Positions 8,023 to 55,821 of a stretch of DNA of 64,000 bases are shown here, piece by piece. Both the position numbers and the translations under genes were made by a program. This DNA comes from Cyanidioschyzon merolae. Lineage: Eukaryota. The number at the start of each line of letters is the position of its first letter. The stretch's first letter is position 1. The notes under the pieces are model-generated. The model was not told the origin of the DNA and did not search any database. It saw only the letters and a list, made by a program, of their open reading frames with translations. The DNA is taken from NCBI GenBank assembly GCA_000091205.1, contig AP006489.2, one strand, 5' to 3'.

Positions 8023-9084
8023 TGGGTACACGCCTCCAGAATCGACGCCTTCGACACGCGCACATCACACCCGTTGCTTTGGGAATCTGTCGCTAGGAGG
8101 CTTTGCAACTGAGGCTGGCATACATCGTGACGCAAGCAGCGTTCCGACCTGCGGGACCGTACGCTCGATCACGATGAACGCTGCCGAAGGGTTACTGCAT
8201 CACCTTCACCCTATGCCGGAGAGGGACGCACTGCCCCATTCCGATTCGCTTCGTCCTCAGCTTGATTGTCGTTAGGCATTCACTGCGATGTGGTAGGGCG
8301 AGCGTCCAGGGAGCTCGCCTCGTTCCATGACCAGCGTCGGCATCGGTTGCTGGTCTGGCTTTTGATTTCCGTTCGGTTTCTTTTGCGGAGCTTGTCAGCT
8401 CGCGCAGCGTCGATCCGTAAACGTCATAGCATGTTCTTTTTCTGGTTGTATTCGTTCGTTGCCGCCAGGCACATGCAAAAAAGTCAGCATCGAAGCGAAT
8501 TGTACGAGCGGATACGTATAGGCAAGCGCTTACGAGCAAGATGGTCTCCATTCGCGTCAAACCGTACATGGAACACTGAACCGTTTGCGCTGTACCTGAC
8601 TTTCCGTGCTTTACCAGCTTGCTGGTAGATGTACAGCCTCTGCATTCGAGATGCAGCAAGAAGGGCGTACGAATTCGTGCGTGAAATCAGGATTCTCGGT
8701 CGTCTTTGATTTCAGTGGCTCCTTCAGCGCTTTCCCGCTGGGAATCGTTATCGCACCGGCATGACGGGGACTCACGACGCCCTCGAAAACGGGTACGTAA
8801 AACAACCGAAACGATGATTTCAATACATATGCACAAGCTCTAGTCTTCTCCTTTGTTTTCGTGGAACGTGTTCAAATCACGGATTTGTTGTGTCGTAGAT
8901 CTCTCTGTTCCATGGCAACGGACGAGCGCAGCTACCCGCACCGCTTGATGGATTGCAAATGAAACTCTCGACTTCGTCCATGGACAGCTTCTTCAAAAGC
9001 TCATGCCGCAGCTTCACCGAACCTGTTACGTCAAAGAATCCAAGCCGCTCGAAGGACGACCCATCATGTCTTTGTGGCCATCGA

Positions 9085-9235
9085 CGAAACGACATTCGAC
9101 ACCAGCACCATGATACCTCGCATGATATATGCTTCGAGAGGTTCCCCTCTCTTTCGTTTGCGTGGGATCGGGTGTCGAACTCGGACTTGAGTCATCGCAG
9201 CGATCGTTTCCAGTGGGGAACGCATTACCACTTTG
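9085..9235 (+). repeat. Isolated degenerate copy of the conserved core module shared by interspersed element families A and B
   Basis: The sequence gtcgaactcggacttgagtcatcgcagcgatcgtttccagtggggaacgc aligns with gtctcggactcggactggagtcatcgcggtgatcgcttcgagtggagaacgc of family A and with the corresponding block of family B. The upstream gccatcgacgaaacgacattcgacaccagc matches family B gccatcgacgacacagcattcgacagcagc. Confidence 0.55.
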
Positions 9236-10655
9236 CACGACAGGCGCGTAGACGGATCGACACTTCTCGATTTGTTTTCAAGGTGCTCTTTCATCATGGG
9301 AGACATTGCGTTCCACAAAACCTCTATTACATAAGAGGGTTCGCGCGTACACGCTCAGCAGACAGAGGACTTGCCTGCGGAGATCGCCTCCAAGTCGCCC
9401 GAGATCATAGGATACGGAACCGAGCACGGAAACGGAGCAAAGCATCGAGGTGAATCCTCTGTACCAGACCTGCGCATCGACAGAGCGATGAAGCAAGCCT
9501 TCATGCGTCGTGCGGCCATGCCCCGAGGCCGGCATATGGTGGACTCAGGGTACCGCCTGACCCCGGTTAGCTGTCACCGCTGCGAGGCGTGCACCGATGC
9601 AGTATGCAAAGAAGGGGAAAATTGCGATCGAGGCATCCATCGCAACTGCCGCCTGTTCATGAAATGCGTTGACAACTGCCAGACACGGTGAAATCGGGAT
9701 TGAAACAGTTCCGTCGAATCCCTTCAACAGCCGACAATAGAGTTGGAAAGAAAGGAGGGACCGGCGAACTTGAAACCTGGGATAAAAGAGAGAAAATGAA
9801 GCTATCACAAAATTCGTCCGCTCAAAGCTGGTCTAAATGACAACGGGAGCATACGCAGGCTTTAGCGTGTACCTCGGAATCAGAAGACGCATTCTGTTTT
9901 GTACTGGGATCGATGTAGCGTCTGTGACGATTCACATATCTCTGTGCGCACCGCAGTAGCTCCAAGTGGCAACGGTACGCACGTCAGCATGGAAACTCCC
10001 GGACATACGCATTCGGAAGCGGGACCAGGAACGTGCGGCTCAGGTCATGCGGGTGGTATCCGCTGCCAGCGCGGGTATCCCCGGCAGGTACACCCTGTGG
10101 GGCATCAGAAATGAGAAATAGGCGCTGATGCACATGCGCGAGAACGCGCCTTCGGTGTCCATGTCGTGCCCTTTTACAGCTTTCGCTTACCTCGGACTTT
10201 CCCTGGACGAGCGCTACACTGCTTGTCTTGCTTTCAAAACGCCGTCCCAGCCTGCTTTGCGTTTCCAAGGGTCTCGGGTTCGTCACCAAAATCGTCCAGT
10301 GCATGCGAGGCCTGCTTTCCGCGATGGAGCGCATCTTCGAGCGCGATCGAGGGCCAAGCTCTGGCTTCCTGAAATACTATACATCTCGAGTGAACGGTTG
10401 CACGCTCGCATAAGGCTGGAGCGCAGCACGCGAGCAACAACGACGCCTGACTCGTGAGTCGCTGCAAACGCTTGCGTCCACGCTCGCTGACCGCCTCCCC
10501 GACAGTGAACCGTGCGCTTGATCCGCCAGAGATGCCCCCCGAGAAATCCGCTTGTGTAGAGGAAGGCACCGAACCCTCGAGAACAGCAGCGATTCCGGTG
10601 CTGCCGCAGCTCCCCATGCTGCTGACCACAACCCCGTTGTGCGGGGAATCAGCGT

Positions 10656-15269: not shown

Positions 15270-18073
<2,804 letters not shown>

Positions 18074-18340
18074 ACAAGCTTGAAACGGATGCGCTCCCAT
18101 TTATCGAGAGCGCACGAGACTGGACGGATGTGTGGTACGCCCGCCTGCCTGCGATTGCGGGTATGAAAAGAGAGATGCCTTTCGGGCAAACCATTGGACT
18201 GGCCTCGGATCAGCATCAGCGTCGAGACGGTACTGACTTGTGAGTTTGAAAGAAGGGCTGACGCTGCAGGAACGCGAAGGTAAAGCTGAATCTGCGAGGT
18301 TGCAGCGGGTTCATGCATGTTCATCTACACCAGTGACAGA

Positions 18341-19703
18341 TTCAAATGGGACGCTAAACGGCTCACTCTGTTCCTGTCTGTCGATTTCTTCGGAATTCAT
18401 TCCTGATTCGTACAGCAGTCTCGACGTGAGAAGCGCGACAATAACGGCTGGCGGATTCATGCCGAATCCAGGAATGCTCCATCGACTTGTCAAGCTGGCG
18501 CGGTGGGTGCTCTCTCTCTCTCTCTCTCCGATCGAATACGTTCTATCGTCAGAGCAGAGATCACTCGCAACGCCCTCGAACACACACTCATACAATAACC
18601 GGTATTCGGATGCAATGCATAGGCGCCCAGGCAGCCACGCTTCTCCTGTACGCACACATAGCATACCCAGAGCAGGCGTGCTTCAAGTCTCCCGTCGTTC
18701 CGGTTCGAGGCAACTCGTGTACACGCGAACGACCAACGCTGGCACGACAAGACGAAACGCTTGACGTCACCGCTTGACGACCTGTTCACAAGCTCGTGCC
18801 CGACGGTCGCTGAACTCGTCACGGCACACGACTGAGTCGCTTCGGAACGCAAGTGCTGCTCGCTGGGTGGCCACGGACGTCACGGCACTCGACAGCGGCA
18901 CGCTGTCTGTGAGGGGATATGCGGCCAGAGGCTTCCGTCTCTGGTGTTGCCGTGCAAAAGCGTCTCGGACTCGGACTGGAGTCATCGCGGTGATCGCTTC
19001 GAGTGGAGAACGCGTCACCGTTTTGCGCCAAAAGCGAACGTAGACGCTTCAGGAGTTCTGGACGTGTTCGCCAGCGCGAGTATTGCCTGCAGCACCTGGT
19101 TCATCGTGGAAACCTGCGTCTCCGTTCCAGAAATCCTCTACGGAACGGAGACGCATGTACCTGCTCGTGTGCAACGGACACGGCACTCGACGAAGCGATC
19201 ACCCGGAAGAAGCGCGTGACAGTAGCGTGCCTCACTAGTCGGAGAAGCGGCGGATGCATCGACGGTAACCTTCGTCGCCCGTCCAGGGCGTGGACCTGGC
19301 GCTGAAGCGAGCGTTCACGAGACACAGGGTAGCGCTCTTAGGAGGGCGTGTGATGCTGGCGGTGCAGCGGTGCAGTGGTGCAGCGGTGCAGCGGTGCATA
19401 TCTGGGTACACCCGGTCATAGCTTAGAGTGATCGCTGCGACCAGCGTACCGCGGCCGTATACGAGGAAGACGAGCGTAGCCATCCGAGTGCAGGTCGCAA
19501 GACAGGTGATCACTTTTCCAGTTGCTGACGGCTGCTCTGAAGACGACAGATAGACCTGTGTACTTCGAGCCGGAAACACACAGTTAGAGAATGAAGCAGT
19601 CCAAGGAAAAGACCCCAGAGGCTTCCGTAGATGATGCAACTGTAAACAGGTCGAAACATTTGTGCATCCACACGTGTTGGAGCACCCGTTTCCTTCCAGT
19701 CTG
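18341..19703 (+). mobile_element. Interspersed element family A, copy 1 (~1.36 kb, non-coding, non-autonomous; class unknown)
   Basis: Near-identical over its full length to the copies at 23605-24967 and 28150-29523. It begins ttcaaatgggacgctaaacggctcac and ends ggagcacccgtt(t/c)ccttccagtctg. It contains a (CT)n run, an 8-bp minisatellite (gcagcggt/gcagtggt x4-5) and the conserved core at about 18880-19025. No long ORF with recognisable homology. Confidence 0.65.
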
Positions 19704-20262
19704 AAACAAGCATAGGAACACGATACAGTCTGTTCCATACCCGGGGTGCTTTCGTCCAGGTTGTGCGTTTACTCGGGAAATGTCGCATCTTGGACTCCGG
19801 GGACTGCACAGTGTTCAGCTGAGGCTCCTGCAAGTAACCTCAAACGATCAGCAACCTCATGCGAAGGCGTTCGAAAGGTCGTATCGACATCGAACGCCGC
19901 CTCCAAAGCGTTCCACAACAAGTACCCTCACGGCTATCGAGAATCCCAGTATCGAAATCGAGCGAAAGATACTTAGCTCTGGAGCTACGTCCGTCTCACA
20001 GGTCCCAGAATCGCCGCATGAAGCAAGCATATTCATCAACATGGGTAACGGTTCCCGGTGGGGTTACGAGCCGGCTCCTTTGCTTGGGGCGGCGAACTTC
20101 AAGCTCGGAAAACGCAGTCGTATGACAAGCACGCACGCAAGCACCATTTTCATTCCAAATGCACCGCTACCGCTCCAGTGCCGCCCTGATAACGAGCGCG
20201 TACACATCAGGCTCAACAACTGTGACGACGACAGCGGCAGTAGAAACGCCAGACGCGAACCT

Positions 20263-22296
20263 CTAAGGCGCTGATGGCAACGCAGGCACCATTCCAGAAC
20301 GCTCAATCAGCGCCAGTGCCTGCACCACTGTGGCATCATCGTAGGCATCACCAATGAACTGGATGCCTACTGGAAGGTAAACCGGCGGCTCGCTTCCCTG
20401 TGCGTCGGCAGAGGGCACAAGACCTACCGGTGCTGTTCCCGCCGGCAAACCAGCAATGTTTGCCACAAAAGTATAGGTGACGGCTTGCCAGGTCGCCCGC
20501 AGATCCTTGCAAGGTTTCCGATCGGGCCGGAACGCAACCGGAAGCGTATCGGTTGTGGGCAAGGCCAGCACATCCACAATGTTGCGACGAAACAGGGTTG
20601 CCAGTTGCACTCGAAGGGCCGCTCTCGCTCGCCGAGCAACGGCCATATCGGCTCCGGTGATGCCTTTCACCGTGTGCAGAACGAGACGACTCCCGTACTC
20701 AAGAAGCTCGCTGCGTGGTTTGAAGCTCCAGTCTGTGGATAAAAGACATTCGAGGGCATCCAGGGGCAAATAAATTGCTCCAAGAGCTGAGGCAAACGGT
20801 TGCAAAGATATGTGCTCCTGGGGTATCGTCACGAGTTCCGCCCAACCGCGATCCGCGAGCCGATGCAAGGCGTCCAGACCAGTGCGTCGAATCGCCGCCG
20901 AGGAGCATCGCTGCCACTCAGACAATGGTATACCAATGCGGAGCTTTCTCGTGGACCCAACCGCTATTTGTCCGGCATCGTTCAGCGATGCGCTCCATTG
21001 CTCCAAGCGGTCCAGTAGCATCGCCACAGCATGTTTCGCTGAACCTCTCGGAGCGTAACCATCTCCGCTCTCGTCAGCATGCACGAGCAAATGATCCATG
21101 CTCTTCGTGTTGGGTGACGTATCCTGCACCGCGGCGACCAGGAAGGCAACAAGATCAAGCACCGAGACTCCGAGGACGCCACCGTGGCCTACGCTTGAGC
21201 AGGCGATACCGGGGTCACCACGACGCGGAAGCAGAAATGCATGGGTCGGCTTCAATCCGAAAAGGCCATTCCAAGCAGCCGGAATCCGCACGCTACCGCC
21301 ACCATCGGTACCATAGGCAACAGGCACATGCAGCAGCGCGACGCGTGCGACAGCAGCCGCGCTACCCGTTGATGAGCCACCAGCGGCATGCCGCTCGCTA
21401 AAAGCACACGGCGGCATCGCATAGACCTCACTGAAACCGAGCGGGTCGAGTCCAAACTCTGTCATCTTCGTTTTTCCGAGCACAACGGCACCAGCTGCTT
21501 CGAGGCGTTCGATCAAGAGTGCATCCGCGTCGGCGACGCGAGGAGCGTCTCGGTATGGAGGGATCGTATGAATGCGCGTTCCACTGGAGGTCACACGTCC
21601 AGCCACATTGACCGAGTCTTTCACAACGACAAGCACTCCATCCAGGACTGAGAGCGGCTGAGGCTGCGGCTCTCTCGCATAGCGCTGTGCAGAGGCGTTC
21701 GCAGCTCGCCGAGCGCGCTCTTCGAATACCTGTGAAAATGGCGATGGACCCCATGCCGTCATCCCTCCCTGTTCCATCTTCCGGATAGCGCTTAGCGTAG
21801 ATTCCAGGATTTGCAGCGGTGTGCAGACTCGCTGTCGATATAGTTGATGATAGGTTAGGCAGGAGCCGGTGCGGATGCCGCGCTCTTCGAATGCAGTCGG
21901 TGGAGCTGCTTCCTGAACGGAAGCGACTCGCGTTTTCCCAACACTTGCGGAGTATGCTTCGCACAGAGCCCAAACTCGCGCATAGGAGAGCGCTTCTCGT
22001 GGCTGTCGAGTCGCTGAACTGCCATCGATGTGCCGACCCGGCAACGGACGCTCGTCTAGCGCACTCGTAGCGAGTGCCGCGGCGTCGACTGCTGTCGCTG
22101 AACCCTCCGCAGCACCCAGCTCAACGATCGAACGCAGCGTCGTGCATAGCCGGTCGAAGCTGAACAGTCGTTTCGTAAAGGTTGCGGCAAGCCACGAACC
22201 CAGGTTGCCTAGAAGTTCCAGGACCAAAACCAGCACACGGAGCGTTGTGCCGTGGAGTGACGTGAACCGCTTAGGCTTTCTTGGTTGCAAGCTCAT
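20263..22296 (-). CDS. Amidase-signature family enzyme (GatA/FAAH-like amidase) with a ~200-aa N-terminal extension
   Basis: 677-aa ORF. The catalytic Lys context VVKDSVNVAG and the Gly/Ser-rich amidase signature GGSSTGSAAAVA (nucleophile Ser) lie at the expected spacing. Confidence 0.7.
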   Translation of the reverse strand: MSLQPRKPKRFTSLHGTTLRVLVLVLELLGNLGSWLAATFTKRLFSFDRLCTTLRSIVELGAAEGSATAVDAAALATSALDERPLPGRHIDGSSATRQPREALSYARVWALCEAYSASVGKTRVASVQEAAPPTAFEERGIRTGSCLTYHQLYRQRVCTPLQILESTLSAIRKMEQGGMTAWGPSPFSQVFEERARRAANASAQRYAREPQPQPLSVLDGVLVVVKDSVNVAGRVTSSGTRIHTIPPYRDAPRVADADALLIERLEAAGAVVLGKTKMTEFGLDPLGFSEVYAMPPCAFSERHAAGGSSTGSAAAVARVALLHVPVAYGTDGGGSVRIPAAWNGLFGLKPTHAFLLPRRGDPGIACSSVGHGGVLGVSVLDLVAFLVAAVQDTSPNTKSMDHLLVHADESGDGYAPRGSAKHAVAMLLDRLEQWSASLNDAGQIAVGSTRKLRIGIPLSEWQRCSSAAIRRTGLDALHRLADRGWAELVTIPQEHISLQPFASALGAIYLPLDALECLLSTDWSFKPRSELLEYGSRLVLHTVKGITGADMAVARRARAALRVQLATLFRRNIVDVLALPTTDTLPVAFRPDRKPCKDLRATWQAVTYTFVANIAGLPAGTAPVGLVPSADAQGSEPPVYLPVGIQFIGDAYDDATVVQALALIERSGMVPALPSAP

Positions 22297-23604
22297 GAAC
22301 GCACTGAATCACCACAGCTTTCAGTGGATTCACGTTCAACACGCTGGACAGTGCAGGAACGCTCTGCCCCAATGACATCGCTTCGAATCAATGTGGGGAC
22401 GGGTTCGCGGATACTTGCATTCTCGGTCGATGACAGAAGCGGTATGCAACCTGTGGCACTTCTCTACCTATGCTCTGATGGTTCATGTTCGGCATAGATA
22501 GGTATGGTTGGTGAGGTTATCCCAGGGATTCGAGCTTGCCGCAAATCGGCTGGTGATATCTCGTATTCTGCGAGGCCGATTTTTTGCGGCTCTTGCTGTT
22601 GACACCACCACCACCGTCCGAGTAGCTGCTGTTGCGAACATCTCGGTCTGTGGAAGCACCTGGCTGGGGTAAACGTGAAAAGGCCACGGAATCGTCTAAA
22701 AGGATTTTGTAGACGGAACTTGAACACATATCTGAAACGTGTTTGCCAAGCGAACCTGTGCCCTTGACGTGATGCTGAACCAAGTGCGTACATCGCACGG
22801 TACCTGGCCGGTTTTCAGCATCGATCGATTCTTGTACCCCGAAAAAGGGAGTACGCGTCCGTGCACAAGGCATCAACGTTTAGAGAGCATCTGCATAGAC
22901 CGCAGCTTAACCCCTTCAACCGAGTCGTTCGCCTCGTTCGGATTCCAGGTACGACTCCTGCCGTGTTGACTGTCGAAAACATTCCATGATCGCTTGCTTA
23001 TCAGTACCGCATGTGGCATTACCAATGCAGGTACCTGTTCCGTGAGCCTAATCGTCTACAATCGCACGAGGCACAAGTTTGGTGCCTTGTTTTATATCCG
23101 ATTATCCGGAATGTTGAGCGGTATTGCATGCTCTAGCGCTGGCGAGCATGGACAACGACGATAGACAGAATACCTCGCTGGAATCGGTTATGGAGTGTAC
23201 GCTTTCCTCGCGACGCATAGCGCTCAGATGTCGTGGTGAGGCATACGCTGCGGAGTGTGGTCCCATGCAGACTGCCGGTTAGGATCGGCGTAAACGACGC
23301 ATTTTCGATCCAGTCTCGAAGAAAGGAAGACATTCAGATGATCCGTCGTGGAAACGGGTGCATTTCTGTTTCTTATCAGTCTTTCGAAGCTTTTCGATTG
23401 TACCGTTAGAGATCGCAACGATAGAGGCTACCTCTCACCGGATTGTGAACGGATGTGCGGCATCGACACCACAGGCACAGCTGTTATGCTCGTCTATACA
23501 ATCGCTACGTATCCCAGTTCCAGTCGCAGAACTGCTCCGTTCCCAGCAGAGAGCGATCCATGCTCCGCTCTGATGGTGTTCCAGTGCTCTGAAGCACTGT
23601 AAGA

Positions 23605-24967
23605 TTCAAATGGGACGCTAAACGGCTCACTCTGTTCCTGTCTGTCGATTTCTTCGGAGTTCATTCCTGATTCGTACTGCAGTCTCGACGTGAGAAGCGC
23701 GACAATAACGGCTGGCGGATTCATGCCGAATCCAGGAATGCTCCATCGACTTGTCAAGCTGGCGCGGTGGGTGCTCTCTCTCTCTCTCTCTCCGATCGAA
23801 TACGTTCTATCGTCAGAGCAGAGATCACTCGCTACGCCCTCGAACACACACTCATACAATAACCGATATTCGGATGCAATGCATAGGCGCCCAGGCAGCC
23901 ACGCTTCTCCTGTACGCACACGTAGCATACCCAGAGCAGGTGTGCTTCAAGTCTCCCGTCGTTCCGGTTCGAGGCAACTCGTGTACACGCGAACGACCAA
24001 CGCTGGCACGACAAGACGAAACGCTTGACGTCACCGCTTGACGACCTGTTCACAAGCTCGTGCCCGACGGTCGCTGAACTCGTCACCGCACACGACTGAG
24101 TCGCTTCGGAACGCAAGTGCTGCTCGCTGGGTGGCCACGGACGTCACGGCACTCGACAGCGGCACGCTGTCTGTCAGGGGATATGCGGCCAGAGGCTTCC
24201 GTCTCTGGTGTTGCCGTGCAAAAGCGTCTCGGACTCGGACTGGAGTCATCGCGGTGATCGCTTCGAGTGGAGAACGCGTCACCGTTTTGTGCCAAAAGCG
24301 AACGTAGACGCTTCAGGAGTTCTGGACGTGTTCGCCAGCGCGAGTATTGCCTGCAGCACCTGGTTCATCGTGGAAACCTGCGTCTCCGTTCCAGAAATCC
24401 TCTACGGAACGGAGACGCATGTACCTGCTCGTGTGCAACGGACACGGCACTCGACGAAGCGATCACCCGGAAGAAGCGCGTGACAGTAGCGTGCCTCACT
24501 AGTCGGAGAAGCGGCGGGTGCATCGACGGTAACCTTCGTCGCCCGTCCAGGGCGTGGACCTGGCGCTGAAGCGAGCGTTCACGAGACACAGGGCAGCGCT
24601 CTTAGGAGGGCGTGTGATGCTGGCGGTGCAGCGGTGCAGTGGTGCAGCGGTGCAGCGGTGCACAACTGGGTACACCCGGTCATAGCCTAGAGTGATCGCT
24701 GCGACCAGCGTACCGCGGCCGTATACGAGGAAGACGAGCGTAGCCATCCGAGTGCAGGTCGCAAGACAGGTGATCACTTTTCCAGTTGCTGACGGCTGCT
24801 CTGAAGACGACAGATAGACCTGCGTACTTCGAGCTGGAAACACACAGTTAGAGAATGAAGCAGTCCAAGGAAAAGACCCCAGAGGCTTCCGTAGATGATG
24901 CAACTGTAAACAGGTCGAAACATTTGTGCATCCACACGTGTTGGAGCACCCGTTCCCTTCCAGTCTG
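23605..24967 (+). mobile_element. Interspersed element family A, copy 2
   Basis: Collinear and almost identical (only a handful of substitutions by eye) to 18341-19703, in the same orientation. It carries the same (CT)n run, minisatellite and core module (about 24145-24290). Confidence 0.65.
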
Positions 24968-25430
24968 GAATTCATGAATACCTTATCTGATCTATATGTA
25001 GAGGTCGCGAGACCCGTCCGAACCCCAACATACGCATATGCGTTTTTTCCTGCACGTTGACGTGTCCATGGGCAGCGCCACTGCCGAAGACATACACGCT
25101 CATGAAACGTGGTATCTGGAGCGGCATCGATGTGATTTCGTAACACTCTACGACATTGCTGCTGACATCGACGCGAGCACAGGGGCATACGCGCTCATCC
25201 GCATCCGACCGTGGAGCCATTTCTGTCATGTGTACCAGATTCAAGAAAAGCCAATTCAAAGCAACCACTTGAAACATAGGGAATTCGTCGTCGTCACTCA
25301 CTTTTGCGTACTTGATCCCTTATTTAACCTGGTTCCCATTGACAATTTGTATGCTTTATGAACCAAAACAGGTCGCGTACGAAAACGAATCTGGCGCGAC
25401 CTTGTTCGAATCGTTTTGGCTTGTACTTGA

Positions 25431-27689
25431 TTGCCCGTGGCTCTTAGGAAGCGTTTCGGTCGGCACGGGGCGTTTCCCATGACTGACGAGCACCAGTCGG
25501 GCACAGCGTGTCAGAGCTCAGCGAGGAAACCGCCCAAGGGAGGTCTGCGACGAAGCACACGCAGCAGGATTCGGGAAGCTCCACCCGAAGACTCACCAGC
25601 GTTGCCGACGCCGCGTACGCCGCAATGGCAGGCCAAGGCGCCCGCTGAAACGCTCTGGAGCCCTTGGCGGGATCAAATAGAGACTGGTTTGGGGTTCGAA
25701 ACGCCGAAAAACTCCGGTAAAGGGGATCGTCGTCGAGGTCACCGTCGAGAGCAGCGGACCAGGCCGGCAGCCGACAAGCGACGCGTTCGCTGGGCGGCCT
25801 CAGTGCGTGGGAAACGCCCGCCGCTGCTCTCGATAGCTGTATCGGTGGCTGGCTGGATCACGCTGGTTATCGTTGCGGTACTTCTTCTGGTGCGTGGGCA
25901 AAAGTGGCAGCAACAGCAAGTGCTGTCGCTTCGGGCGACAACTCGGAGGTACGCGTACGCCACCCTGCTCTGTGATGATGAACGCATGCTCCGGGCAGTT
26001 GCGGCATTGGTGCACTCGCTTCGAGTCCGAGCAAACACCTCCTACCCGATCTTGGTGCTTACCACACCCAACTTGTCAACAGCGGCGTCACAGCATCTGG
26101 AGGCGCTTGGAGCAACAGTAATACGGCGCGAGCCGCTGCCGTATCCGTTTGCCCTGAACGCAGCCCGGCTCCGCGATAACAAACCCTGTCGCTATGCCAA
26201 GTTACACCTGTGGTCGTTAACAACATACGAAAAGATTGTGTTCCTTGATGGAGACACATTGGTTTTGGCACCAATTGATGATCTCTTTGAAAAGTATGAT
26301 GCGCTCGCTGCTGCTCCAGACCTCTATCCGGAGACGTTCAACTCCGGCGTGATGGTGCTCGAACCGCGCCACGATGTGTACGCCTCGATGTTGGCACGAT
26401 ATCGGGAGACACCCTCGTACAACTTGGGCGATCAGGGCTTTCTGAATAGTTTCTTTGGTGAGCAATGGAGAGCGAACCCGAAGCGTTTCCACTTGCCCCT
26501 GGAATACAACACGCTGCTGAAGCTGCGGGAGACCATTCTCTGGGCGAGCCTCCAGCGCCGCGTCCGTGTTGTCCATTTTACTGGAGAAACCAAACCGTGG
26601 AGCTGGCACTTGACCAATTTTCGTGACTGGGATCGTCATATCGATCCTGTCTTCTACTACGAATGGATTCAGATCGACCGATCAGCACGCAACTTATCAC
26701 TTGATGAACCGCACTGGGCCCGTTGCGCTCTGGAAGCCCAGACGCTAGCCATGCACAACGGGAGCCTTGGACAACGCTTTCCGCTTCGCGATCGCTACAG
26801 TGTGGTGCTCAGCACGTATAGCCGCGATGATTTGCTACATAAGCTGTTGCGCATTCATTATCGCCCTGGCCTGTTCCCTGGAAAACCCAAGTCGCGTCAG
26901 AAGGAACAAACATCGGACGCGAGTGCGCTGATCGATAAGGTATTCATTGTGTGGCATGATCCGCAGCGAACACCACCGCCGGACCTTCTTCGTAATCTGC
27001 CGCCGGATCGATTCCTGCTTGTTCAACAGCAGCAGGACTCGCTGAATAACCGCTTTAATCCTCTGGGGCCCGCTCTGCGCACACGAGCAGTGCTCATCGT
27101 CGATGACGATATTCGCATTCATCACGAGGATGCAGCATTCGCTTTCCGAGTCTGGCAGGATAATCCGAATGCGCTGGTTGGCTTCTTCCCGCGTTTTCAC
27201 CGGCGGCATCCTCAGACCGGAACGTATGAGTACCACATTGCTGAGCCCGTGGATCACGATGCGAACGCGAGTCACAGACAGTTCCGTCGCTACTCGATTG
27301 TGCTAACCAAGCACATGTTCATGCGCGCTGACTTTCTCTTCTACTATCGCTGCCTTCTGCCGGATGAACGCATTCATGCTTATGTCGACGAGCATCGGAA
27401 CTGCGAGGATATCGCTTGTCAGTGCATGGTGACCAGTATGGGTGGATCCGCTCCCATCGCCGTTCGTGCGGTGCACCCGGTCGAGGACTACGGCACCCCG
27501 GGTGTAGGCGTTGCCGGTGGTATCAGCGCATCACGGTCTCATTTGGGGTCCCGTTCCCACTGCATTGCGACCTTTTTAGAGACGTTTTGGAAAGGTTCAA
27601 ATGCCCTTCTTTATAATGACGTAATCATGGAGCGTTTTGTGAAGATTCCGTTTGAGAAAAAGCGACTGCGGGACCTGGCGAAAACGTGA
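25431..27689 (+). CDS. Bifunctional glycosyltransferase: N-terminal GT8 (glycogenin-like, DxD) domain fused to a C-terminal GT64 (exostosin-like) domain, with a type II membrane anchor
   Basis: 752-aa ORF. TM segment LLSIAVSVAGWITLVIVAVLLLV near aa 125-150. GT8 motifs YATLLCDDE..., KLHLWSLTTYEKIVFLDGDTLVL, FNSGVMVLEP. GT64 block SLNNRFNPLGPALRTRAVLIVDDDIRIHHEDAAFAFRVWQDNPNALVGFFPR matches the plant GT64 consensus SLNNRF...KTRAVLELDDDI...FRVWRE.P..IVGFYPR. Confidence 0.75.
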   Translation: MPVALRKRFGRHGAFPMTDEHQSGTACQSSARKPPKGGLRRSTRSRIREAPPEDSPALPTPRTPQWQAKAPAETLWSPWRDQIETGLGFETPKNSGKGDRRRGHRREQRTRPAADKRRVRWAASVRGKRPPLLSIAVSVAGWITLVIVAVLLLVRGQKWQQQQVLSLRATTRRYAYATLLCDDERMLRAVAALVHSLRVRANTSYPILVLTTPNLSTAASQHLEALGATVIRREPLPYPFALNAARLRDNKPCRYAKLHLWSLTTYEKIVFLDGDTLVLAPIDDLFEKYDALAAAPDLYPETFNSGVMVLEPRHDVYASMLARYRETPSYNLGDQGFLNSFFGEQWRANPKRFHLPLEYNTLLKLRETILWASLQRRVRVVHFTGETKPWSWHLTNFRDWDRHIDPVFYYEWIQIDRSARNLSLDEPHWARCALEAQTLAMHNGSLGQRFPLRDRYSVVLSTYSRDDLLHKLLRIHYRPGLFPGKPKSRQKEQTSDASALIDKVFIVWHDPQRTPPPDLLRNLPPDRFLLVQQQQDSLNNRFNPLGPALRTRAVLIVDDDIRIHHEDAAFAFRVWQDNPNALVGFFPRFHRRHPQTGTYEYHIAEPVDHDANASHRQFRRYSIVLTKHMFMRADFLFYYRCLLPDERIHAYVDEHRNCEDIACQCMVTSMGGSAPIAVRAVHPVEDYGTPGVGVAGGISASRSHLGSRSHCIATFLETFWKGSNALLYNDVIMERFVKIPFEKKRLRDLAKT

Positions 27690-28149
27690 TCGCTGCAGAG
27701 CTATCGCCAGTGCTGGTGCGGATGCAGAGGACCTGGACGCGCCCTCCAGTAGTCAAGCGTGCGAAGCATCGCGTCGGATCCAGTGAAGAGGTATTTTGTC
27801 GGCACTCGACTTGGCTGCTGGTGCAGGTTCTATGGTGCGCGGATCCTACGAGCAAGAGGGTCTGCACTCCAACCGTGGTGTAAGCGCTCGGCACACCCTC
27901 TATATTGCGTCAGGGGTTTAGGCTTCGCGTAGGTACACGGGCGAAGCGATCGTCGCATGCCTTGCGTCTGCGGGTTATACTGGCGAAGGACACGTGCGGA
28001 ATTCTGCTCGAAGATTCAAGAACTGTCGGCTAGGAGTTTGAACAGGAATCTGATTGTACCGTGCTTTGCGATGTGAATGCGATCGGGGAGTGCACCAAGA
28101 TGGCATTTGAATAAAATGCTCGTACATCGCTCCAGTTCTTGTTGTAGGT

Positions 28150-29523
28150 ATGTATCGGGTTCAAACGGGACGCTAAACGGCTCACTCTGTTCCTGTCTGT
28201 CGATTTCTTCGGAGTTCATTCCTGATTCGTACTGCAGTCTCGACGTGAGAAGCGCGACAATAACGGCTGGCGGATTCATGCCGAATCCAGGAATGCTCCA
28301 TCGACTTGTCAAGCTGGCGCGGTGGGTGCGCTCTCTCTCTCTCTCTCCGATCGAATACGTTCTATCGTCAGAGCAGAGATCACTCGCTACGCCCTCGAAC
28401 ACACACTCATACAATAACCGATATTCGGATGCAATGCATAGGCGCCCAGGCAGCCACGCTTCTCCTGTACGCACACGTAGCATACCCAGAGCAGGCGTGC
28501 TTCAAGTCTCCCGTCGTTCCGGTTCGAGGCAACTCGTGTACACGCGAACGACCAACGCTGGCACGACAAGACGAAACGCTTGACGTCACCGCTTGACGAC
28601 CTGTTCACAAGCTCGTGCCCGACGGTCGCTGAACTCGTCACGGCACACGACTGAGTCGCTTCGGAACGCAAGTGCTGCTCGCTGGGTGGCCACGGACGTC
28701 ACGGCACTCGACAGCGGCACGCTGTCTGTCAGGGGATATGCGGCCAGAGGCTTCCGTCCCTGGTGTTGCCGTGCAAAAGCGTCTCGGACTCGGACTGGAG
28801 TCATCGCGGTGATCGCTTCGAGTGGAGAACGCGTCACCGTTTTGTGCCAAAAGCGAACGTAGACGCTTCAGGAGTTCTGGACGTGTTCGCCAGCGCGAGT
28901 ATTGCCTGCAGCACCTGGTTCATCGTGGAAACCTGCGTCTCCGTTCCAGAAATCCTCTACGGAACGGAGACGCATGTGCCTGCTCGTGTGCAACGGACAC
29001 GGCACTCGACGAAGCGATCACCCGGAAGAAGCGCGTGACAGTGGCGTGCCTCACTAGTCGGAGAAGCGGCGGGTGCATCGACGGTAACCTTCGTCGCCCG
29101 TCCAGGGCGTGGACCTGGCGCTGAAGCGAGCGTTCACGAGACACAGGGTAGCGCTCTTGGGAGGGCGTGTGATGCTGGCGGTGCAGCGGTGCAGTGGTGC
29201 AGCGGTGCAGCGGTGCATATCTGGGTACACCCGGTCATAGCCTAGAGTGATCGCTGCGACCAGCGTACCGCGACCGTATACGAGGAAGACGAGCGTAGCC
29301 ATCCGAGTGCAGGTCGCAAGACAGGTGATCACTTTTTCCAGTTGCTGACGGCTGCTCTGAAGACGACAGATAGACCTGCGTACTTCGAGCCGGAAACACA
29401 CAGTTAGAGAATGAAGCAGTCCAAGGAAAAGACCCCAGAGGCTTCCGTAGATGATGCAACTGTAAACAGGTCGAAACATTTGTGGATCCACACGTGTTGG
29501 CGCACCCGTTCCCTTCCAGTCTG
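28150..29523 (+). mobile_element. Interspersed element family A, copy 3
   Basis: Same sequence, orientation and internal landmarks as copies 1 and 2. The first bases differ slightly (ttcaaacggga versus ttcaaatggga). The core module lies at about 28700-28845. Confidence 0.65.
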
Positions 29524-30033
29524 TCATAGGCGTGCAGTAACTTGTTCAGTGATGCATTCCGTTGATGAGGGTGCTCGCGGGCCGTCGCGACGTCAACGCC
29601 CACTTCAAGCAAGCTGCTGGATTCTTGACTTGCTTTCCGCGTTCCTTGCCAGATTTGTCTTGCATGAGCATGTAAGCTGGATCGTACAGAAACGTTGTAC
29701 AAAGCCTAGCGTGGATCAAAGTGCACTGCCCAGTGCCAATGCACGGCAAGTGCTCGCTTCGCATCAAGCGTACGCTGCGTAGCTCCTATGCTGAGAACAT
29801 GCTGGGAAACCGAGCGCTTTACCTTTCACAGGCACGTGCCAAGCACGGGCTACGGCACTGCGTCTTCAGCTGCACAGGCGTTCGTGACAGTGTCGTATCG
29901 CATGAAAATGCAAGCGCTCTTTCTCGCAGTACAAGAGACAACCAGCACGGGTACCATATCGATCGTGATGACGCGTTTATGCTGCCACTTGGCGCCTGTC
30001 ACGCAGCTGGTCAGGTTGCAAGATAGCCAATGA

Positions 30034-30558: not shown

Positions 30559-31350
30559 GAGCGGTACAATCGACTGAAGAGCATGCGCTTAGGCCATTCG
30601 AACGCTCGTTCACGCGCTCTGCATGAAGCGAACACCGCATGCCGCTCCGGTCGACAAGGCGCTCACAGTGTCGAAACGAGTCCTGACACACACATTGCAC
30701 CTGTTGCTTTATGTCGTGGCTCACGTCATGCCTGGCAGTAGAGACCAGCGAGCACTGGAAAAGTCAGACCGCATCGCATCTGCTCTTCCGCGTATAAGCT
30801 GTCTTGTGGAACGAAATTGTGGACGAAAAATGCCAGAGGTATGTGGACTGCTGGCAGCCCTGCTTGACAACCACCTAGGAACAGTTGCTTGACGACATGC
30901 GTCGAGGTGAGCGTTGCTAGGCAAGACCTGCTCGAGTGCGAAGCATCGCGATCCCTCACGACATCCTATATATTATGATTACTTGGTAGCGAACAATGCT
31001 TCTACTGAACCGTGAGCGTCTACATCGCATTTGACAAGATGAAAGACGTATTTAACTGGACAAAATCAGGGAGAATCGGCTTGCCCGATGAGCGCCTGAG
31101 CACCAATCGCAGCGGTGCACGATTTGATCGCTTTCGAGTCGTGGAAAGCGGTTTGGTCCGAGGGCCGAATCGCGGCCCCTTGAATGAGATGCCATGACGC
31201 GCTTCAACCCTGATTGCGTTCATGAACGATGCTATCGCTTTGGCGGTTTGGATGCAACCACGCAACTGAATCACCGCTAGGTCTGATGTCGTCGGAACGT
31301 TCGCTTGACTCCTCTTTTCGAATAGCGAGTTGCACTTTGTTGCTTGTTCA

Positions 31351-31878
31351 TAGACAGGTCTAGCATTTTGTTGGAGTGATCGCTTACGGAATGAGCCGAG
31401 TACTTGTCCCCACTGAAATATTATGATTTAGAAACTCGTAGACAGGTCTAGCATTTTGTTGGAGTGATCGCTTACGGAATGAGCCGAGTACTTGTCCCAA
31501 CTGAAATATTATGATTTAGAAACTCGTAGACAGGTCTAGCATTTTGTTGGAGTGATCGCTTACGGAATGAGCCGAGTACTTGTCCCCACTGAAATATTAT
31601 GATTTAGAAACTCGTAGACAGGTCTAGCATTTTGTTGGAGTGATCGCTTACGGAATGAGCCGAGTACTTGTCCCAACTGAAATAATATGATTTAGAAACT
31701 CGTAGACAGGTCTAGCATTTTGTTGGAGTGATCGCTTACGGAATGAGCCGAGTACTTGTCCCAACTGAAATAATATGATTTAGAAACTCGTAGACAGGTC
31801 TAGCATTTTGTTGGAGTGATCGCTTACGGAATGAGCCGAGTACTTGTCCCAATTGGAATATTATGATTTATAAACGGA
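31351..31878. repeat. Tandem satellite of six 88-bp units (tagacaggtctagcattttgttggagtgatcgcttacggaatgagccgagtacttgtccc[c/a]actgaaata[t/a]tatgatttagaaactcg)
   Basis: The tagacaggtc motif recurs at 31351, 31439, 31527, 31615, 31703 and 31791, an exact 88-bp period. Units are head-to-tail with no spacers. The last unit degenerates (aattggaatattatgatttataaacgg). Confidence 0.9.
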
Positions 31879-34874
31879 CAAATTGGATCACCTGTTGATC
31901 GACACGCAGCGGGCTCCCGGTGAAGCACTCGCTTACGCTTACCCATCCGTATCTCTTCGTTGCCGGTCGTATGAACGGTACGGATTCTTCACAGGCTGTT
32001 CCCTCTTTGATAATAGCTCCTAGAGATAGTATGGAGTGAAATGATTTGACAAGGAGGCTATCATTTATACTGAGTTTCATACGTGCCGTTTGAGGTGCAC
32101 GACGTTCCAAACACCGACAACGAGAAGGATGGTGCATCCATATGCTGACCATACAGGGACAACCTTGAACGGATAAGGTCTTGTTTCGCTGCCTAGCAGC
32201 GACGGCTTCAAGTCTGGTCGGGGTACTTCTCCAGTCTACGGATTATATTCCTTTTGTCGAACGTCTTCATGAAAAACGAAAAAAAAACACAAAAAGTAGC
32301 GCTGGTACATGCGGTACAGAATGAGGTGCTCTGCGTACAAGGCGGTGCAGACCTGACGGTTCTCGTGGATGGTCTTTTTTTGGTTCCTTTTCGTTGGCAG
32401 GCAACCCTTCGGTGCGCTTCGATGCAAAAAGAACTTTTCCGATTCACGAAACCGACGGCTCAAATGCCGATGACGCTTCACGTGATGCCGGTGCTGGACA
32501 GGTTCTCTCCTCAATACGTGGCTGCCTGGCTCCTGTACGTTCATGCGTTGGACAGCGAGCGGAACTTTATGGTGAGTAGAGCATCACTAGCATCAGCTGG
32601 TGCCATTGCTCGCGCGCATCCTATGATGACTTCCGGTAGGTCTGTCTCTAGTACTGAACGCTCGACCAACAGACTCTCTTGTGGTAAGCACTGCGCTGAC
32701 ACCTCCATCGAGCCGTCATGTTCACTGACGTAAAAAATTCTGGCACGTGCGGAACCACGAGTCGAAGACGATGCCGTTATCCATGAGTGCGGTTCTTGTC
32801 GCCGCTAAAGCGCGAGTATCTCTTCGTGCTTGTGATGCCACATCCTCATGCAGTCAGTTTACGTGCGAGTCTCGCGATGGAGACACATCTGGACGTGCGG
32901 CTCGAGTCACTGCCCTCCGTTTATCGACGACGAGGATGCAGGGGAACGCCATCTGGAGCTCCACGCCCGACGGCGATAAGCGTAGGAGGATTCGAGTGTA
33001 GCACTTGTGACCAGGCAGCTTCACGCGTTGCGCACTTTGTCGTCCATGCTCATCTGCTCGGGGCGTTATCTTGCGCAGCGTAGAGGTCTCCACTGTACAC
33101 ATGTGGCGCCCCGCAGCGCGGTCCTGCAAAGAATCACATGAACAACGCTTTTGCGTACGCATCGCCTTGAGCAAAAGCGCTATTCCACAAATGAATGCCC
33201 TTAGCGTAAACGGAAATCCACCAAGGTAGCAAAAGCCTCTACGGCAATGCGTCTCCAGAGCGTGCGTTCCTGGCGATGCCTAGGCTTCGGCAGTGCCAGC
33301 ATTGCCTCTGAGGTCCAGCGACACCTGTCACCGCGTGGATCCCTCTCCCACTATCTGTAGATGCGGTCCTGCGGAAACAAAAGCAAACTGATCCGGCTCT
33401 AGTATGAAGCCAGCGCAACAGCGAGGCATCCATCAGCGAGCTCGAGTGCACCACGGATATGAACATGGATAAAATGCGACATTCGACGCAGTTTTGGTCT
33501 GCTCAAGTGTCGACACCTCAAACCAATATCTAGATGGGCGCCCGAACACCATTACCAGCCGTACCCCGCAAAGCGCCTCCCCAGGCCTGCGGTTTGCGGA
33601 TGACTCGCGTCGCAGCAAGCAGCTCTGGCAGGCCCGCCACCCAAACAGTCGCTGAGACTAGTTTCCAGGCATCAAAGAACGATTGTTCTGGGGATTCAGG
33701 TACAAAGAAGGCGTATCTTAAGGAACTTGGGTCTCTTTCCTGCTCCTCCATGGCACCCTCGCATAAAAGAGAACCGCGGTTCAATGCATGTATCTTATTC
33801 TATTTCCCAGCACGAGGGCTGCGCGCGCTTTTACGGGACGTCGAATCGTTCACATGAGCCAGAGGATCCCAAATAGCACGATGGTTATCCCAATTGATGT
33901 GCGCTTCCATTACGGAGCGCCCTACCTTCAGGTGCAGCTCCACGAGCACGATCGACCAATTCTTGCGGAGAGCACGCTGCTTCCGTACGAAGCTCACGGT
34001 ACCAAGCGACTGGTAGGAGCGCTCGCTATGAAACCGCACGAACACAGCGCATTTCTGCCATATAGTTTACTACGGACAAGAGCGCAAGAACCACGTGTAC
34101 ACGCACTCATAGTTCACTAGAACCGCCCCAGTGGGGCCACTTGAAACACACAGGCACCACTGTAGAACTTTTCCGTCGAGTACCTCAACGCGCTGCGTAC
34201 TGACGGGTGAACCACCGGCTTTCCGACACAGCATCGTTTCGAGGATGCACAAAGACGCTTTCCGGCGGTGACGGCGCTACTCAGTCAGTCAGTCTGTCTG
34301 TCTGTCAGTCAGTCAGTCTGTCTGCCACGAACCCGAGTATCAATGCCTGCACCTCGACAGTGCAACCTAGGTCGGCGTCAGCATCTGCTGCTACCGCTGG
34401 TGTATACTTGTGTGCGTGTGTGTGTGTGCAGTTATTGATGCTTGCCCGCGCTAGCCTAGACTTCTATAAAGCAGAACATCACTTTGCATGTGCAGTCGCA
34501 GTTCAAGTATCTGACGCTGAGAGCGGAGCGCCGTACAAACCGCGCGCCGCTCTGTGTTTTCGAAACGACGGCGAGTCACTTTCGATGCTGAGGGCCTGAA
34601 AGCTGCAGCTGCTTCGGGTCTGTTTCGGGAACCGACGCAACGGGTTGTAGGTGTTTCGCTCTGGACTGTCGGGAGGTTTTGCTACCTCAAGGACCTGGGC
34701 GTGGCAGGCGTGATAAGCAGAGCGCTTACCCTTACGCATTGCGTAGTCGCTCTAAAAAACTTGGGGTGTGCTCCAGGTCGAGATTTGTGAACTTGCCGTT
34801 CAAACCAAAGCCGTCAGAATAGCGTGTGGACAGGAAAGCAATACAACGCGACTAGTACCACCACCTAACAAGAG

Positions 34875-37286: not shown

Positions 37287-38374
37287 CGCAGCGTGCATGC
37301 GAAGACGCGCTCCCGTTGAGGCTTCCCTTTAGCAGAGGCGCGCTACAATGCTCTTTCGCTGTCGTTCCAAGGCGGTTGCCGCCGTCCAGCACTCCAGTTT
37401 GCAACCAGTCTCCGCTTTCGCTGATTCGACGATCGACGAGCCGTCGAGGAGCAAACCACGTGCATAGCCGTTCTGCGGCCTGGTCCAGCGTGACGCATCA
37501 TTCGAGAACACCGGTGATGATAATGGTGATATTCGTCGTCATTAGCGCACCGTAGGTCCGCAGCACCACCAAAGTGATACCCAGGGGTTTACCGCTCTCA
37601 ATGTTGTGCGTCGTTGTCGCGCGGCGGTACCTGCTGCTGCTGCTGCTGTTGCTGGTAACCGAGCGGTGGCGACGTGCTGACGGTATGTGTGCTGCGGTCG
37701 AGAATGCATGTGTGTGTTTGTGTCTGCACGCGTGGCTTCACACCAGGTGTGCTTCAGGAGACTCGAACCGTAACGCGTCGTGCAGCGCTGCGGACGGCAT
37801 CACTTGGGAATGAGCTGCTTGCGAAATGCATCCAACCTGGCAGCGCTGTAGTTGCCTCAGTGACTACCGGCTCTACGGACTCGGGGATGCAGAGGCAACG
37901 CAGGGGCAACTGCGGCTTGTGTGTGCCAAGGATGCATGTGCACTGTCGCTTGCGTTCGAAGCGTCAGTTCGCGTCTCGGCCATGTTCGAGAATGTTTTTG
38001 GTACAAGGACGGGGATCGTTGCCGATGATGATCATCGTCCGGCGTACGAATGCGTCCGCTGACCATGACCCCTTGACCGCGCATGCTGCACTGCGCATTC
38101 CAGGTGAACGTGCTGGAGGCAACGCAGAGAGGCTCGCGACCTGGGGACGGCACCGGAGCCTTGACGACTGGTTGATCCTGCGCTAGCAGCACGGAAGTGT
38201 GCACAGTGAGCGGTGCCAGTGCAGGCCGGCGCACGAGAAACAGCAGGACCTGGTGGCACAACTCGGTTCGAACTGCGCAGCGCTTGCTGCAGGAGCTTGT
38301 TCGGTATCGGAAAGCTGTGTTCGGCGATGCTGTTCACGGCCACACGGGTGGAGAACGGTCGGGGCTTTTGCCTT

Positions 38375-39728
38375 TGTCAAACTAAAATGCGTAACTGACC
38401 TGGTCGCTCTACTCATGTCTTGTGATTATGTTTCCGAACGTTTCATGGGTGTTTAGCCTCGGCATTCGATTTGCAGTCGCAAGGGATGCCGCTTTCATGC
38501 GTCGTTCTAGGATCCGCGGTCGTCGTTTCGGAGTGAGATTCTCGATGCTTTGCTGCTGGAATTCGGAACGATTCCAGAGTGAGGATGAGTCGCGAGGCAG
38601 TGGAACACGACTACGCAACACACGCGATACCATTGTGGTATTCGTATGTACCGGCAACCAGGCTACTCCTTTGCTTGTGTGCGTCGCATGCGCAGATCAC
38701 ACACAGGATTCATGTCTTCTATCGTTCTGTGTTCAGGCATTACGCGGACGAAGCAGTATGCGCTGTTGGATTGGCGAGCAAAAACACTCCATGTCGGGCG
38801 CTGAAACCTCGTTGACGAGTTCATGGCGAATGCTCACTGAACTTGTCCCGTCAACACATCGATCTCATTCGAAACACACACGTCCTACGCTCTGTGTATG
38901 GAGCCATCGACGACACAGCATTCGACAGCAGCATGACACCGGTCACGGGATATGCTCCCAGACGCTGTTGTCTCTTCCGTTTCGATCGAAAAAGGGTCCT
39001 GGAGTCGGAATGCTATGATCACAGCGATCGCTTTCTGCGGAGAATGCTTCGCGACTGAGAAAGAAGCGCGCGTTGCCGGATCGAAGGTTCTCGACTTGAT
39101 CTCGAGCCTCGGTTTCCCTCTCGGTACTTGTTTCATTTCAGAGAGCAACGCTCAGCACAAATCCGCTTGTAGAAAATCGAAAAACAAGCGTTCACGCGCC
39201 TAGAGAGCAGCGTACGAGGTCAAGGCATTGCCCCGAAGAAGCCAGCGGTATCAGGGAACTGCAGTGGGCACGTCAACTGAGGAGCGCATCGCGAGGAGCC
39301 TTCTGTACCCGTCAAGGGCATGGGCTGAGCGATACGGTGAGCGTTCACGCTCTGCAGAGTGGCGCTGCCACCAGGCGGAAATTTGCCGGAGACATGCATT
39401 CGAGTGCCTGACCAAAGTCAAGTGTCGCCGCTGCGAAGCGCGCACCGAGGCTGTTTCCGACAAGTACGAAACCGAGAAGCGAAGCGTGATTCGCGACTTG
39501 AGCCTGTGGACATCGTGCGTCGACACCAGCCGAAGCCCGTGATACCCGGACTTGGAAGCTGTTGTTGTTGTTGTTGTCGTCGTCGTCATGCAGTGACTAC
39601 TGAAAACAGAGCTGGCGAGACGAACACGATCCGCGTACGTAAACGCCGGAAATAAAAGAGGGAATATGCGGCAGTTGCAGACATAGCTTTCAACAACCGG
39701 TATTCATGAGAATGAAGAGAGACCCGAC
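38375..39728 (+). mobile_element. Interspersed element family B, copy 1 (~1.35 kb, non-coding)
   Basis: Collinear and highly similar to 55822-57170. It starts tgtcaaactaaaatgcgtaactgacc and ends ...gagaatgaagagagaccc. It contains a (GTT)n/(GTC)n run near 39555-39581 and the conserved core at about 38915-39045. The length and core position are similar to family A. Confidence 0.65.
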
Positions 39729-39839
39729 CCTTTTGCGAGTTCGCTCGATATACAGGACCTGTCCTATTTCTAGGCTGACACGGGTACGATGTAGCTCGAT
39801 CCTAGTCCTTGTGGTAAAGCAGAGCCGGCGTTACCGGTT

Positions 39840-41330: not shown

Positions 41331-41664
41331 CGAGTGCTAAAGAAGCAGGCACCTACGAACAAGGCACACGAAAGAAGACCAGCAATCCACGCTGTTCGCG
41401 CATCGCGCAATGGATGGCGTACAACAGCGCGCTGCAGCGCCCTGCGTGTCCATGCGACGTGCGACGTGCGTCGTACGTCGTGCGTGTGCGTGTGCGTGTG
41501 CGTGTGTTCGAATCGGCGCACTGGACGCGCCTTGCCGCGCAGACGCATCGCAGGTGCCATGCGTGGCGCTGTTTTCGGCGGCAGGCGATCGAATTCGCGA
41601 TGCCACAGGTATCCCAGTGCGGATCGTAGCTGCATTGTATAGAGGCTATGCATTTCTATTCGTT

Positions 41665-55207: not shown

Positions 55208-55821
55208 TCAGGGGCGACTCGGAGTCAGCGCTCTATGATGGCGATGCTGGGCGTACGGACAAGAGTTCCTAAAATGATCCAGGAAAAGTCAGACTGGGAA
55301 CCAGCAGACCTCCAGAAAGAAAACTCTGGAACACCTTACGCTCTCTGCGGAAGCAAGTTCCTCGTTGAAAGGTTCTTGGGCTCAGCGAAGCGCCGCGGTG
55401 TATGCCTCGTGAGAGAACCTCTGCTCCCGTTGGCTCTAGACCAACTTTCGTTCCTCGATGTCTCCAGGAGTAGGGCTTCAAACGGAAGCGCCCTTGAGCT
55501 TCGACGAAGAGAACGTTTGCAGCCGTTTGCTCTGTACCGATCCTCGTGTCTCCTTGTCTTTAGAAAACGCTTCGCGGATCGGTTACCAACCTCTGTCGTG
55601 CAGAAAGCGCTGCGCAGGACTCGTCCCAAGCCGTCTTCGGAGCAGTTCAAGGATACTTGTTTCTGCAAGACCTTGAACGCCACAGTTTATCAACGATCGA
55701 TTCCTACCTCTCGTTTAAGGGTGAAAAGAAGCTCAGAAAACGCCCGGATATATCTGTGATAAACGTGTTTTCCGTAGGCGAGAAATCCGGAAGCGTCTTG
55801 TGCCGCGTTGTCCTATACCCG

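Follow-up and report, generated by a model that had tools for sequence, protein, structure and literature searches.

Fanzor1, a eukaryotic RNA-guided nuclease akin to TnpB, is carried by Mariner/Tc1 transposons such as PUl-1 and PGv-1 (Bao & Jurka 2013, PMC3627910; Jiang et al. 2023, PMC10530073). A separate Fanzor1 family, CMe-1A, has been described for Cyanidioschyzon merolae, a red alga, with about 150 copies of ~3.2 kb that are about 80% identical to their consensus, and for which the transposon class was left undetermined and no inverted ends were reported (PMC3627910). Here we analyze a stretch of 64,000 nucleotides of C. merolae contig AP006489.2 (assembly GCA_000091205.1; the whole stretch is called the window below), which holds seven copies of a dispersed repeat, three of which, A1, A2 and A3, are nearly identical. 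Judged from their sequences, the repeats are remnants of a Tc1/mariner-IS630 transposon with a helix-turn-helix (HTH)/DDE-type transposase and Fanzor1, and we propose that the near-identity of A1-A3 probably reflects gene conversion among old insertions, and not new transposition.

Like the Fanzor1-carrying Mariner/Tc1 transposons, the repeats combine a transposase of the Tc1/mariner-IS630 kind and Fanzor1 in one element with putative short inverted ends and TA at the ends, and the C-terminal Fanzor motif, a zinc ribbon followed by RD..AA.N, is recognizable. In contrast to those transposons, the window elements are deleted pseudogenes of ~1.35 kb, devoid of the third transposase catalytic region and of the first ~530 Fanzor residues, and their transposase matches DDE_3 (IS630-like) and not the classical mariner model. 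Like CMe-1A, they belong to a compact red-algal genome and form a diverged repeat family of old age that bears Fanzor1; unlike CMe-1A, they are shorter, possess a transposase remnant and putative inverted ends, and include no intact copy. They add a red-algal lineage in which Fanzor1 travelled with an IS630/Tc1-type transposase.

Near-identical copies within an old repeat family

The near-identical A units are located at 18338-19703 (A1), 23602-24967 (A2) and 28157-29523 (A3), all on the + strand. Their pairwise differences amount to 18, 19 and 24 in 1368 aligned columns, equivalent to identities of 98.7, 98.6 and 98.2%, with a single 1-nt indel, and 30 aligned columns vary among the three, each of which has its own flanks. 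The units are direct repeats in three unrelated intergenic spaces, the sequence outside all three being unrelated, and successive starts are 5264 and 4555 bp apart. The initial annotation had already described three near-identical copies of one orientation in separate intergenic spaces, and had argued from the unrelated flanking genes (ThiC, amidase and GT8/GT64) that the locus is not a segmental duplication. Both statements hold, the first of them at 98.2-98.7% identity, as does the first of its spacing values, whereas the second had been given as 4545 bp.

Family A had also been treated as a family of its own, which it is not. Sensitive self-comparison aligns A and B at about 60% identity over ~800 nt, collinear and on the same strand, and the same relation extends to A, B, C and D by BLAST (about 60% identity, E down to 1e-66). 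The further window members are B1 (38370-39784), B2 (55817-57228), the single diverged relic C (8551-9910, ~55% identical to A) and the diverged relic D (63272-64000), which is cut by the window end. Searched with a family profile, the window yields these seven copies and no others; all are on the + strand (p about 0.016 for a single orientation) and together they cover 14-15% of the 64 kb. A scan of metagenome contigs with a 22-base degenerate pattern from the conserved blocks returned 24 loci, many of them repeats of the same loci from other samples, while the remaining ones add at least six subfamilies (E, F, G, H, I and J). On one of these contigs (L005), with three relics within 12.6 kb, the orientations are mixed: E is on the - strand, opposite to F on the + strand, and a third, partial copy at the contig end is on the - strand. 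In subfamily F (L005 4814-6352; the same locus in L009 8107-9643), the initial ~150 nt are duplicated in tandem.

In an alignment of the ten subfamilies the homology extends from end to end, all pairs are 52-59% identical in a star-like manner, and conservation is higher in the center than towards the ends. Family A is one of at least ten subfamilies, all probably derived from one old burst, and the relics account for about 15% of a 64-kb region, in an algal genome that is very compact, where this intergenic DNA would otherwise be 'anonymous'.

A transposase and a Fanzor1 remnant in one element

No intact reading frame is present in any of the ten subfamilies on either strand. The majority consensus of the ten, however, restores long frames on the + strand. 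The 5' consensus peptide matches the Pfam model DDE_3 (PF13358) with 29.9 bits (cut-off 28.6; E=5.7e-7) over profile positions 2-117 of 146, as well as three transposase HTH models, HTH_Tnp_Tc3_2 (E=3e-4), HTH_33 and HTH_32. Placed on the single copies by tblastn of the consensus peptide, the decayed HTH and DDE_3 (IS630/Tc1-type) remnant occupies 18529-19031 in A1, 23793-24289 in A2 and 28348-28844 in A3, all +. The third catalytic residue falls in a region lost by deletion.

The 3' part is a decayed C-terminal remnant of Fanzor1, comprising a RuvC-II-like stretch, a zinc ribbon and RuvC-III, and is located, by consensus and tblastn, at 19257-19635 (A1), 24521-24899 (A2) and 28943-29455 (A3) on the + strand. 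The 3' consensus peptide, with the zinc-ribbon/RD motif TTVKCHRCE..RLCMKC..NRDLDAAVNVL, reaches 26.3 bits against PF07282 (Cas12f1-like_TNB, the TnpB/Cas12f zinc ribbon), equal to the cut-off. A profile search of the protein database retrieved P0125, an intact open reading frame (ORF) of 216 aa with QRALARAADR..KPVIVGYGTGRGNGGGHKGEP..WEHLTTKKC..NRDFNAAINIL, which establishes the true frame of the 3' part of the element. An exhaustive search with P0125 in turn yielded full-length proteins of 680-800 aa with PF07282. Among these relatives, P0137, P0127 and P0129 match the curated C. merolae Fanzor1 CMe-1 (PMC3627910 supplement) in the RuvC region, with E from 1e-8 to 1e-13 (7e-10 for P0137 and 3e-13 for P0129). 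The 3' consensus peptide and the C-terminus of P0137, a protein of 682 aa, share 50% identity in an alignment of 153 aa (BLASTP, E=3e-50), and the window remnant is much closer to the P0137/P0127 group than to CMe-1, to which it is about 23% identical. Real Fanzor-type proteins also match C, B1 and B2 directly by tblastn (6e-10 and about 1e-6; in C at 9338-9727), and the Fanzor assignment is therefore independent of the consensus. Neither the consensus nor the family profile nor P0137 produced a useful match in sequence searches of the PDB.

The retained Fanzor part is equivalent to residues 521-670 of P0137, the upstream portion being replaced by the transposase remnant. The transposase frame continues to about the second catalytic Asp (..CFIMD..) and is directly followed by Fanzor residues ~520 onward. 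The element lacks a complete RuvC domain, which would include the first catalytic Asp (DPG motif region), and holds fragments of the Fanzor gene only. The junction is at the same position in all ten subfamilies, indicating that they go back to a single non-autonomous derivative that arose, by internal deletion, from a Tc1/IS630-type transposon with Fanzor1, in agreement with the earlier view of the A units as derived from a mobile element.

Two candidate readings were set aside. The string 'EYSPRGSP' in frame 0 of the consensus had been considered as the transposase motif PPYSPxxNPIE, and was dropped because P0125 shows that the true Fanzor frame covers the same stretch. A non-coding origin had been suggested by a flat 3-base periodicity of the substitutions among A, B, C and D, a crude test that is defeated by frameshifts and neutral decay.

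The gene order around the copies is preserved in contigs of related organisms. The block RIO1, TFIIS, RPN7, ThiC, amidase, GST, GT8/64, L37, RNase HII, LETM1, SQS is found in L001 (GC 66%), and its part from ThiC to GT8/64 in L003 (GC 55%). Neither of these two syntenic contigs contains an element, and the spacer between ThiC and amidase measures 65 bp and 751 bp in these relatives versus 2189 bp in the window. Hence, the elements are lineage-specific insertions.

These observations also bear on whether the units are maintained by selection for a non-coding function, as RNA genes or as strand-specific chromosomal or regulatory elements with one copy per intergenic space in one orientation. The arrangement in the window, where all seven copies share the + strand, occur singly in their intergenic spaces and amount to 14-15% of the sequence, would fit such a role, as would the higher conservation of the element center. 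We nevertheless regard it as very improbable, since the sequence is explained by the decayed transposase and Fanzor frames, the divergence is star-like at about 55%, the syntenic relatives manage with 65-bp spacers devoid of units, and the orientation on L005 is mixed. Furthermore, the whole window gave no Rfam match at gathering thresholds, and RNAalifold predicted 0 pairs for the last ~200 nt of nine subfamilies, where a structured guide (omega) RNA was sought.

Element ends and tract borders

The putative inverted tips of the elements are imperfect, with a by-eye consensus of CACCTGTGTCAGAT..AAATGGGAC at the 5' end and, as reverse complement, CCCATGTCAG..GAAATGGAAC at the 3' end. A repeat search for inverted ends within a single copy found none, because the ends have decayed. 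Of 24 ends, 12 have TA beside the inferred tip, compared to a TA dinucleotide frequency of 2.9% in the window (p about 2e-7 even with three positions allowed, the boundaries being set by eye). Neither the 5'-TC...CTRR-3' termini and 3' hairpin of a Helitron nor the TG...CA ends and 4-6 bp duplication of a solo long terminal repeat were observed, and both classes were rejected.

The B pair provides the clear case for conversion. B1 and B2 are 99.1% identical over 1351 bp (38375-39725 in B1, 55822-57169 in B2), followed by only 43 of 68 matches in the rest of the element. The identity starts at TGTCAAAC, and the five outermost 5' bases differ, GCCTT versus ACCCG. It stops at 39725 and 57169, 59 nt short of the old 3' end, so that the last 59 nt of B1 (39726-39784) are diverged. 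Both tails are homologous but diverged, ending in ..ACG.G and then TA, and that of B2 is nearest to subfamily H. A profile built without A and B extends 47-68 nt beyond the border of B identity. A border 59 nt inside the element excludes cut-and-paste transposition, while conversion between old relics can yield it.

Family A displays the same pattern, albeit tighter and weaker. The A unit, with the ends AGATTC...CAGTCTG, lacks about 10 nt of each old tip, and no TA duplication is found at its borders. Outside the unit, A1 has TA and then CACCAGTGAC on the 5' side, and AAACAAGCA and then TA on the 3' side, so that the old A1 relic probably spans 18328-19712, + strand, with TA on both sides (18326-7 and 19713-4). 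The outer flanks of A2 (CACTGTA) and A3 (..CTGtcatagg) are tip-like and mutually different, the 3' flank of A3 still resembling the family end CTGACATGG. When aligned to A1 and A3, the profile without A and B proceeds 23-29 nt past the 5' border and 5-13 nt past the 3' border of the A unit.

The initial annotation had left the choice between recent amplification and gene conversion. A recent transposition burst would require an active Tc1/IS630-type transposase elsewhere that mobilized an A master copy in trans, with local hopping into three nearby intergenic sites. The A unit is indeed discrete, as its three copies have identical borders but unrelated flanks, it belongs to a transposon-derived family with putative inverted ends and TA flanks, and its copies are clustered within 11 kb. 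Its borders, however, lie about 10 nt inside the inverted-repeat tips, with diverged tip-like sequence just outside and no TA duplication, and the B1/B2 border could not have been produced in this way. In addition, all copies found are full of stops, and protein searches recovered no intact transposase of this type. A burst is hence unlikely, and of the two processes originally offered it is conversion that is favored, with tracts ending inside diverged element ends (about 10 nt in A, 5 and 59 nt in B).

Near-identity could also be spurious, if one repeat had been misplaced three times in the assembly or the copies had been polished towards each other, a condition that the initial annotation had allowed for. 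Assemblers do jump at these repeats, as two metagenome contigs join flanks of different copies, L002 (A1 to A3) and L010 (B1 to B2). Five independent contigs from several samples nevertheless reproduce the junctions and spacing of the window, i.e. C to A1 (L007, L011 and L013), A1 to A2 (L019) and A3 to B1 (L027), with equal spacing except for ~190 bp less in L027, and therefore the copies are not an artefact of this assembly. As the three copies also differ at 30 aligned columns, each with its own flanks, the probability of an artefact is close to negligible. The two joined contigs are observations in their own right: L002 (1-4695; ThiC-side flank of A1 and downstream flank of A3) and L010 (4300-5830; left of B1 and right of B2) are either short-read chimeras or real deletion haplotypes formed by crossing-over between direct repeats.

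Proposed history of the repeats

Non-allelic gene conversion underlies the concerted evolution of dispersed repeats such as yeast Ty elements and human Alu and L1, and of duplicated genes. The window resembles these cases in the sharp-bordered near-identity within older, diverged homology and in the proximity of the partners on one chromosome, and differs from usual conversion partners in that the background has diverged much further, by about 45%.

We infer the following course of events. The parent would have been a Tc1/mariner-IS630-type element with two co-directional genes, one for a transposase (HTH and DDE_3) and one for Fanzor1. A single internal deletion would then have fused the N-terminal two thirds of the transposase to the last ~150 codons of Fanzor1, and the resulting non-autonomous derivative of ~1.35 kb presumably spread in one old burst in the red-algal lineage, probably that of the hot-spring Cyanidiophyceae. 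Only intergenic insertions would have survived, and in a compact genome this makes the insertion-site preference suggested by the initial annotation needless. The copies may next have decayed neutrally to about 55% mutual identity, prior to non-allelic gene conversion, i.e. ectopic recombinational repair, between neighboring relics on the same chromosome, in which one body was copied over others, among A1-A3 and separately between B1 and B2. The tracts would have stopped inside the elements, leaving the outermost inverted-repeat tips old and diverged.

Several points weigh against this interpretation. The transposase call depends on the consensus: of ten sequences in the scan, made up of the consensus plus nine copies, four match DDE_3 at E<1, no single copy has a significant match (best E about 0.06-0.2), and the translated single-copy fragments yield DDE_3 at E=0.2 only in Pfam. 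The unconverted tips of family A measure only about 6-12 nt, in short by-eye alignments. Conversion at only about 55% identity is inefficient and needs partners that are kept similar by repeated conversion, and the model does not account for the escape of C, only 9.8 kb from A1. The shared orientation of the seven window copies (p about 0.016) is predicted by neither random insertion nor conversion. Finally, metagenome copies with mosaic paralogue variants exist, in contigs suspected to be chimeras, and are not counted as evidence.

The large background divergence would be less of an obstacle if the overwriting were a form of guide-RNA-directed homing. An active Fanzor1 elsewhere would use RNA from the retained 3' ends and cut diverged sisters at the conserved ends, and repair from a donor would replace their bodies, which would account for borders near the element ends despite about 45% divergence. 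TnpB/IscB nucleases are reported to assist transposon retention through guide-RNA-directed cleavage and recombinational repair (Meers et al. 2023, as summarized in PMC10690162). The window elements are similar to the extent that a TnpB-family nuclease gene is placed at the transposon 3' end and that the proposed outcome is copying of the transposon by homologous repair. In contrast, they have no intact nuclease and no conserved guide-RNA structure. The link is speculation, and we give homing only a very slight chance.

With gene conversion as the most likely cause of the near-identity, the divergence between copies would give a falsely young age of insertion, which calls for caution when bursts are dated from such repeats. 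Consequences beyond those mentioned would arise only if an active Fanzor were found in this genome.

Intact relatives and the presumed layout of the parent

The order of genes presumed for the parent is seen in contigs of low-GC organisms. In L030, an HTH-DDE_3 transposase is followed by a Fanzor1 N-terminus, and the 5' consensus matches the N-terminus of this transposase at E=1.8e-7 (BLASTP). In L028, a transposase end (PPYSPWFNPIE) is followed by a Fanzor gene with an internal deletion of its own. This locus (L028 1-1114, 33% GC) encodes a Fanzor1 without residues ~24-538 whose frame of 216 codons is still open, beside the end of a DDE_3 transposase. It is an independent internal-deletion derivative, on which selection may still be acting. 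A protein search for the full-length partner transposase, using the 64-aa transposase end of L028, returned two short fragments only. The closest GC-richer intact Fanzor1 relative, P0129, is encoded in L032 (1-7757) among RNA ligase, 2H-SAK and Peptidase_S74 genes, in a contig that looks viral.

Internal repeats, neighboring genes and other sequence features

Two short repeats are specific to family A, and the initial annotation had considered both of them variable between the copies. The CT run is (CT)9.5 in A1 (18510-18528) and A2 (23774-23792), and its counterpart in A3 is (CT)8.5 (28331-28347), all +. The shorter count in A3 is caused by a single T>G substitution, and the length of the run is unchanged among the copies. 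The five-unit GCGGTGCA array (19359-19398 in A1, 24623-24662 in A2 and 29178-29217 in A3, + strand) is the same in all three. A 'cagc/caac' difference that had been assigned to this array does exist, but is located just past it. On the minus strand of A3, an ORF of 157 aa (29054-29527), which starts at the conserved CCATG of the element 3' end and has two hydrophobic stretches, is probably spurious, being disrupted by frameshifts in A1 and A2 and without a match in Pfam.

The genes next to the A copies, as assigned by Pfam, are ThiC (16052-18073, +), an amidase (20263-22296, -) and a GT8+GT64 fusion (25431-27689, +). The window ThiC is matched at 100% identity only in a JGI metagenome; its 120 best matches include no protein assigned to C. 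merolae, and the two closest contigs are 85% identical. Its closest named relatives are those of the red algae Porphyridium, Galdieria, Chondrus and Rhodosorus. An N-terminal extension of ~130 residues in this protein is consistent with plastid targeting. The window spacers are larger than those of the GC-rich syntenic relative L001, e.g. 2.5 kb versus 148 bp after LETM1, and where checked the transposon relics make up most of this excess.

An 88-bp tandem array is positioned at 31260-31963, in the gene-poor stretch from A3 to LETM1, with six near-perfect units (98% matches) and degenerate units at both edges. A difference of about two of its units would be one explanation for the ~190 bp by which L027 is shorter than the window from A3 to B1. 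A second dispersed repeat pair, 41657-42589 and 57449-58365, shares one strand and 71% identity along ~930 bp. Each member is located 3' of a B copy, 0.2 kb past B2 and 1.9 kb past B1 with one gene in between, and the two have no long ORF in common and may represent another family of relics.

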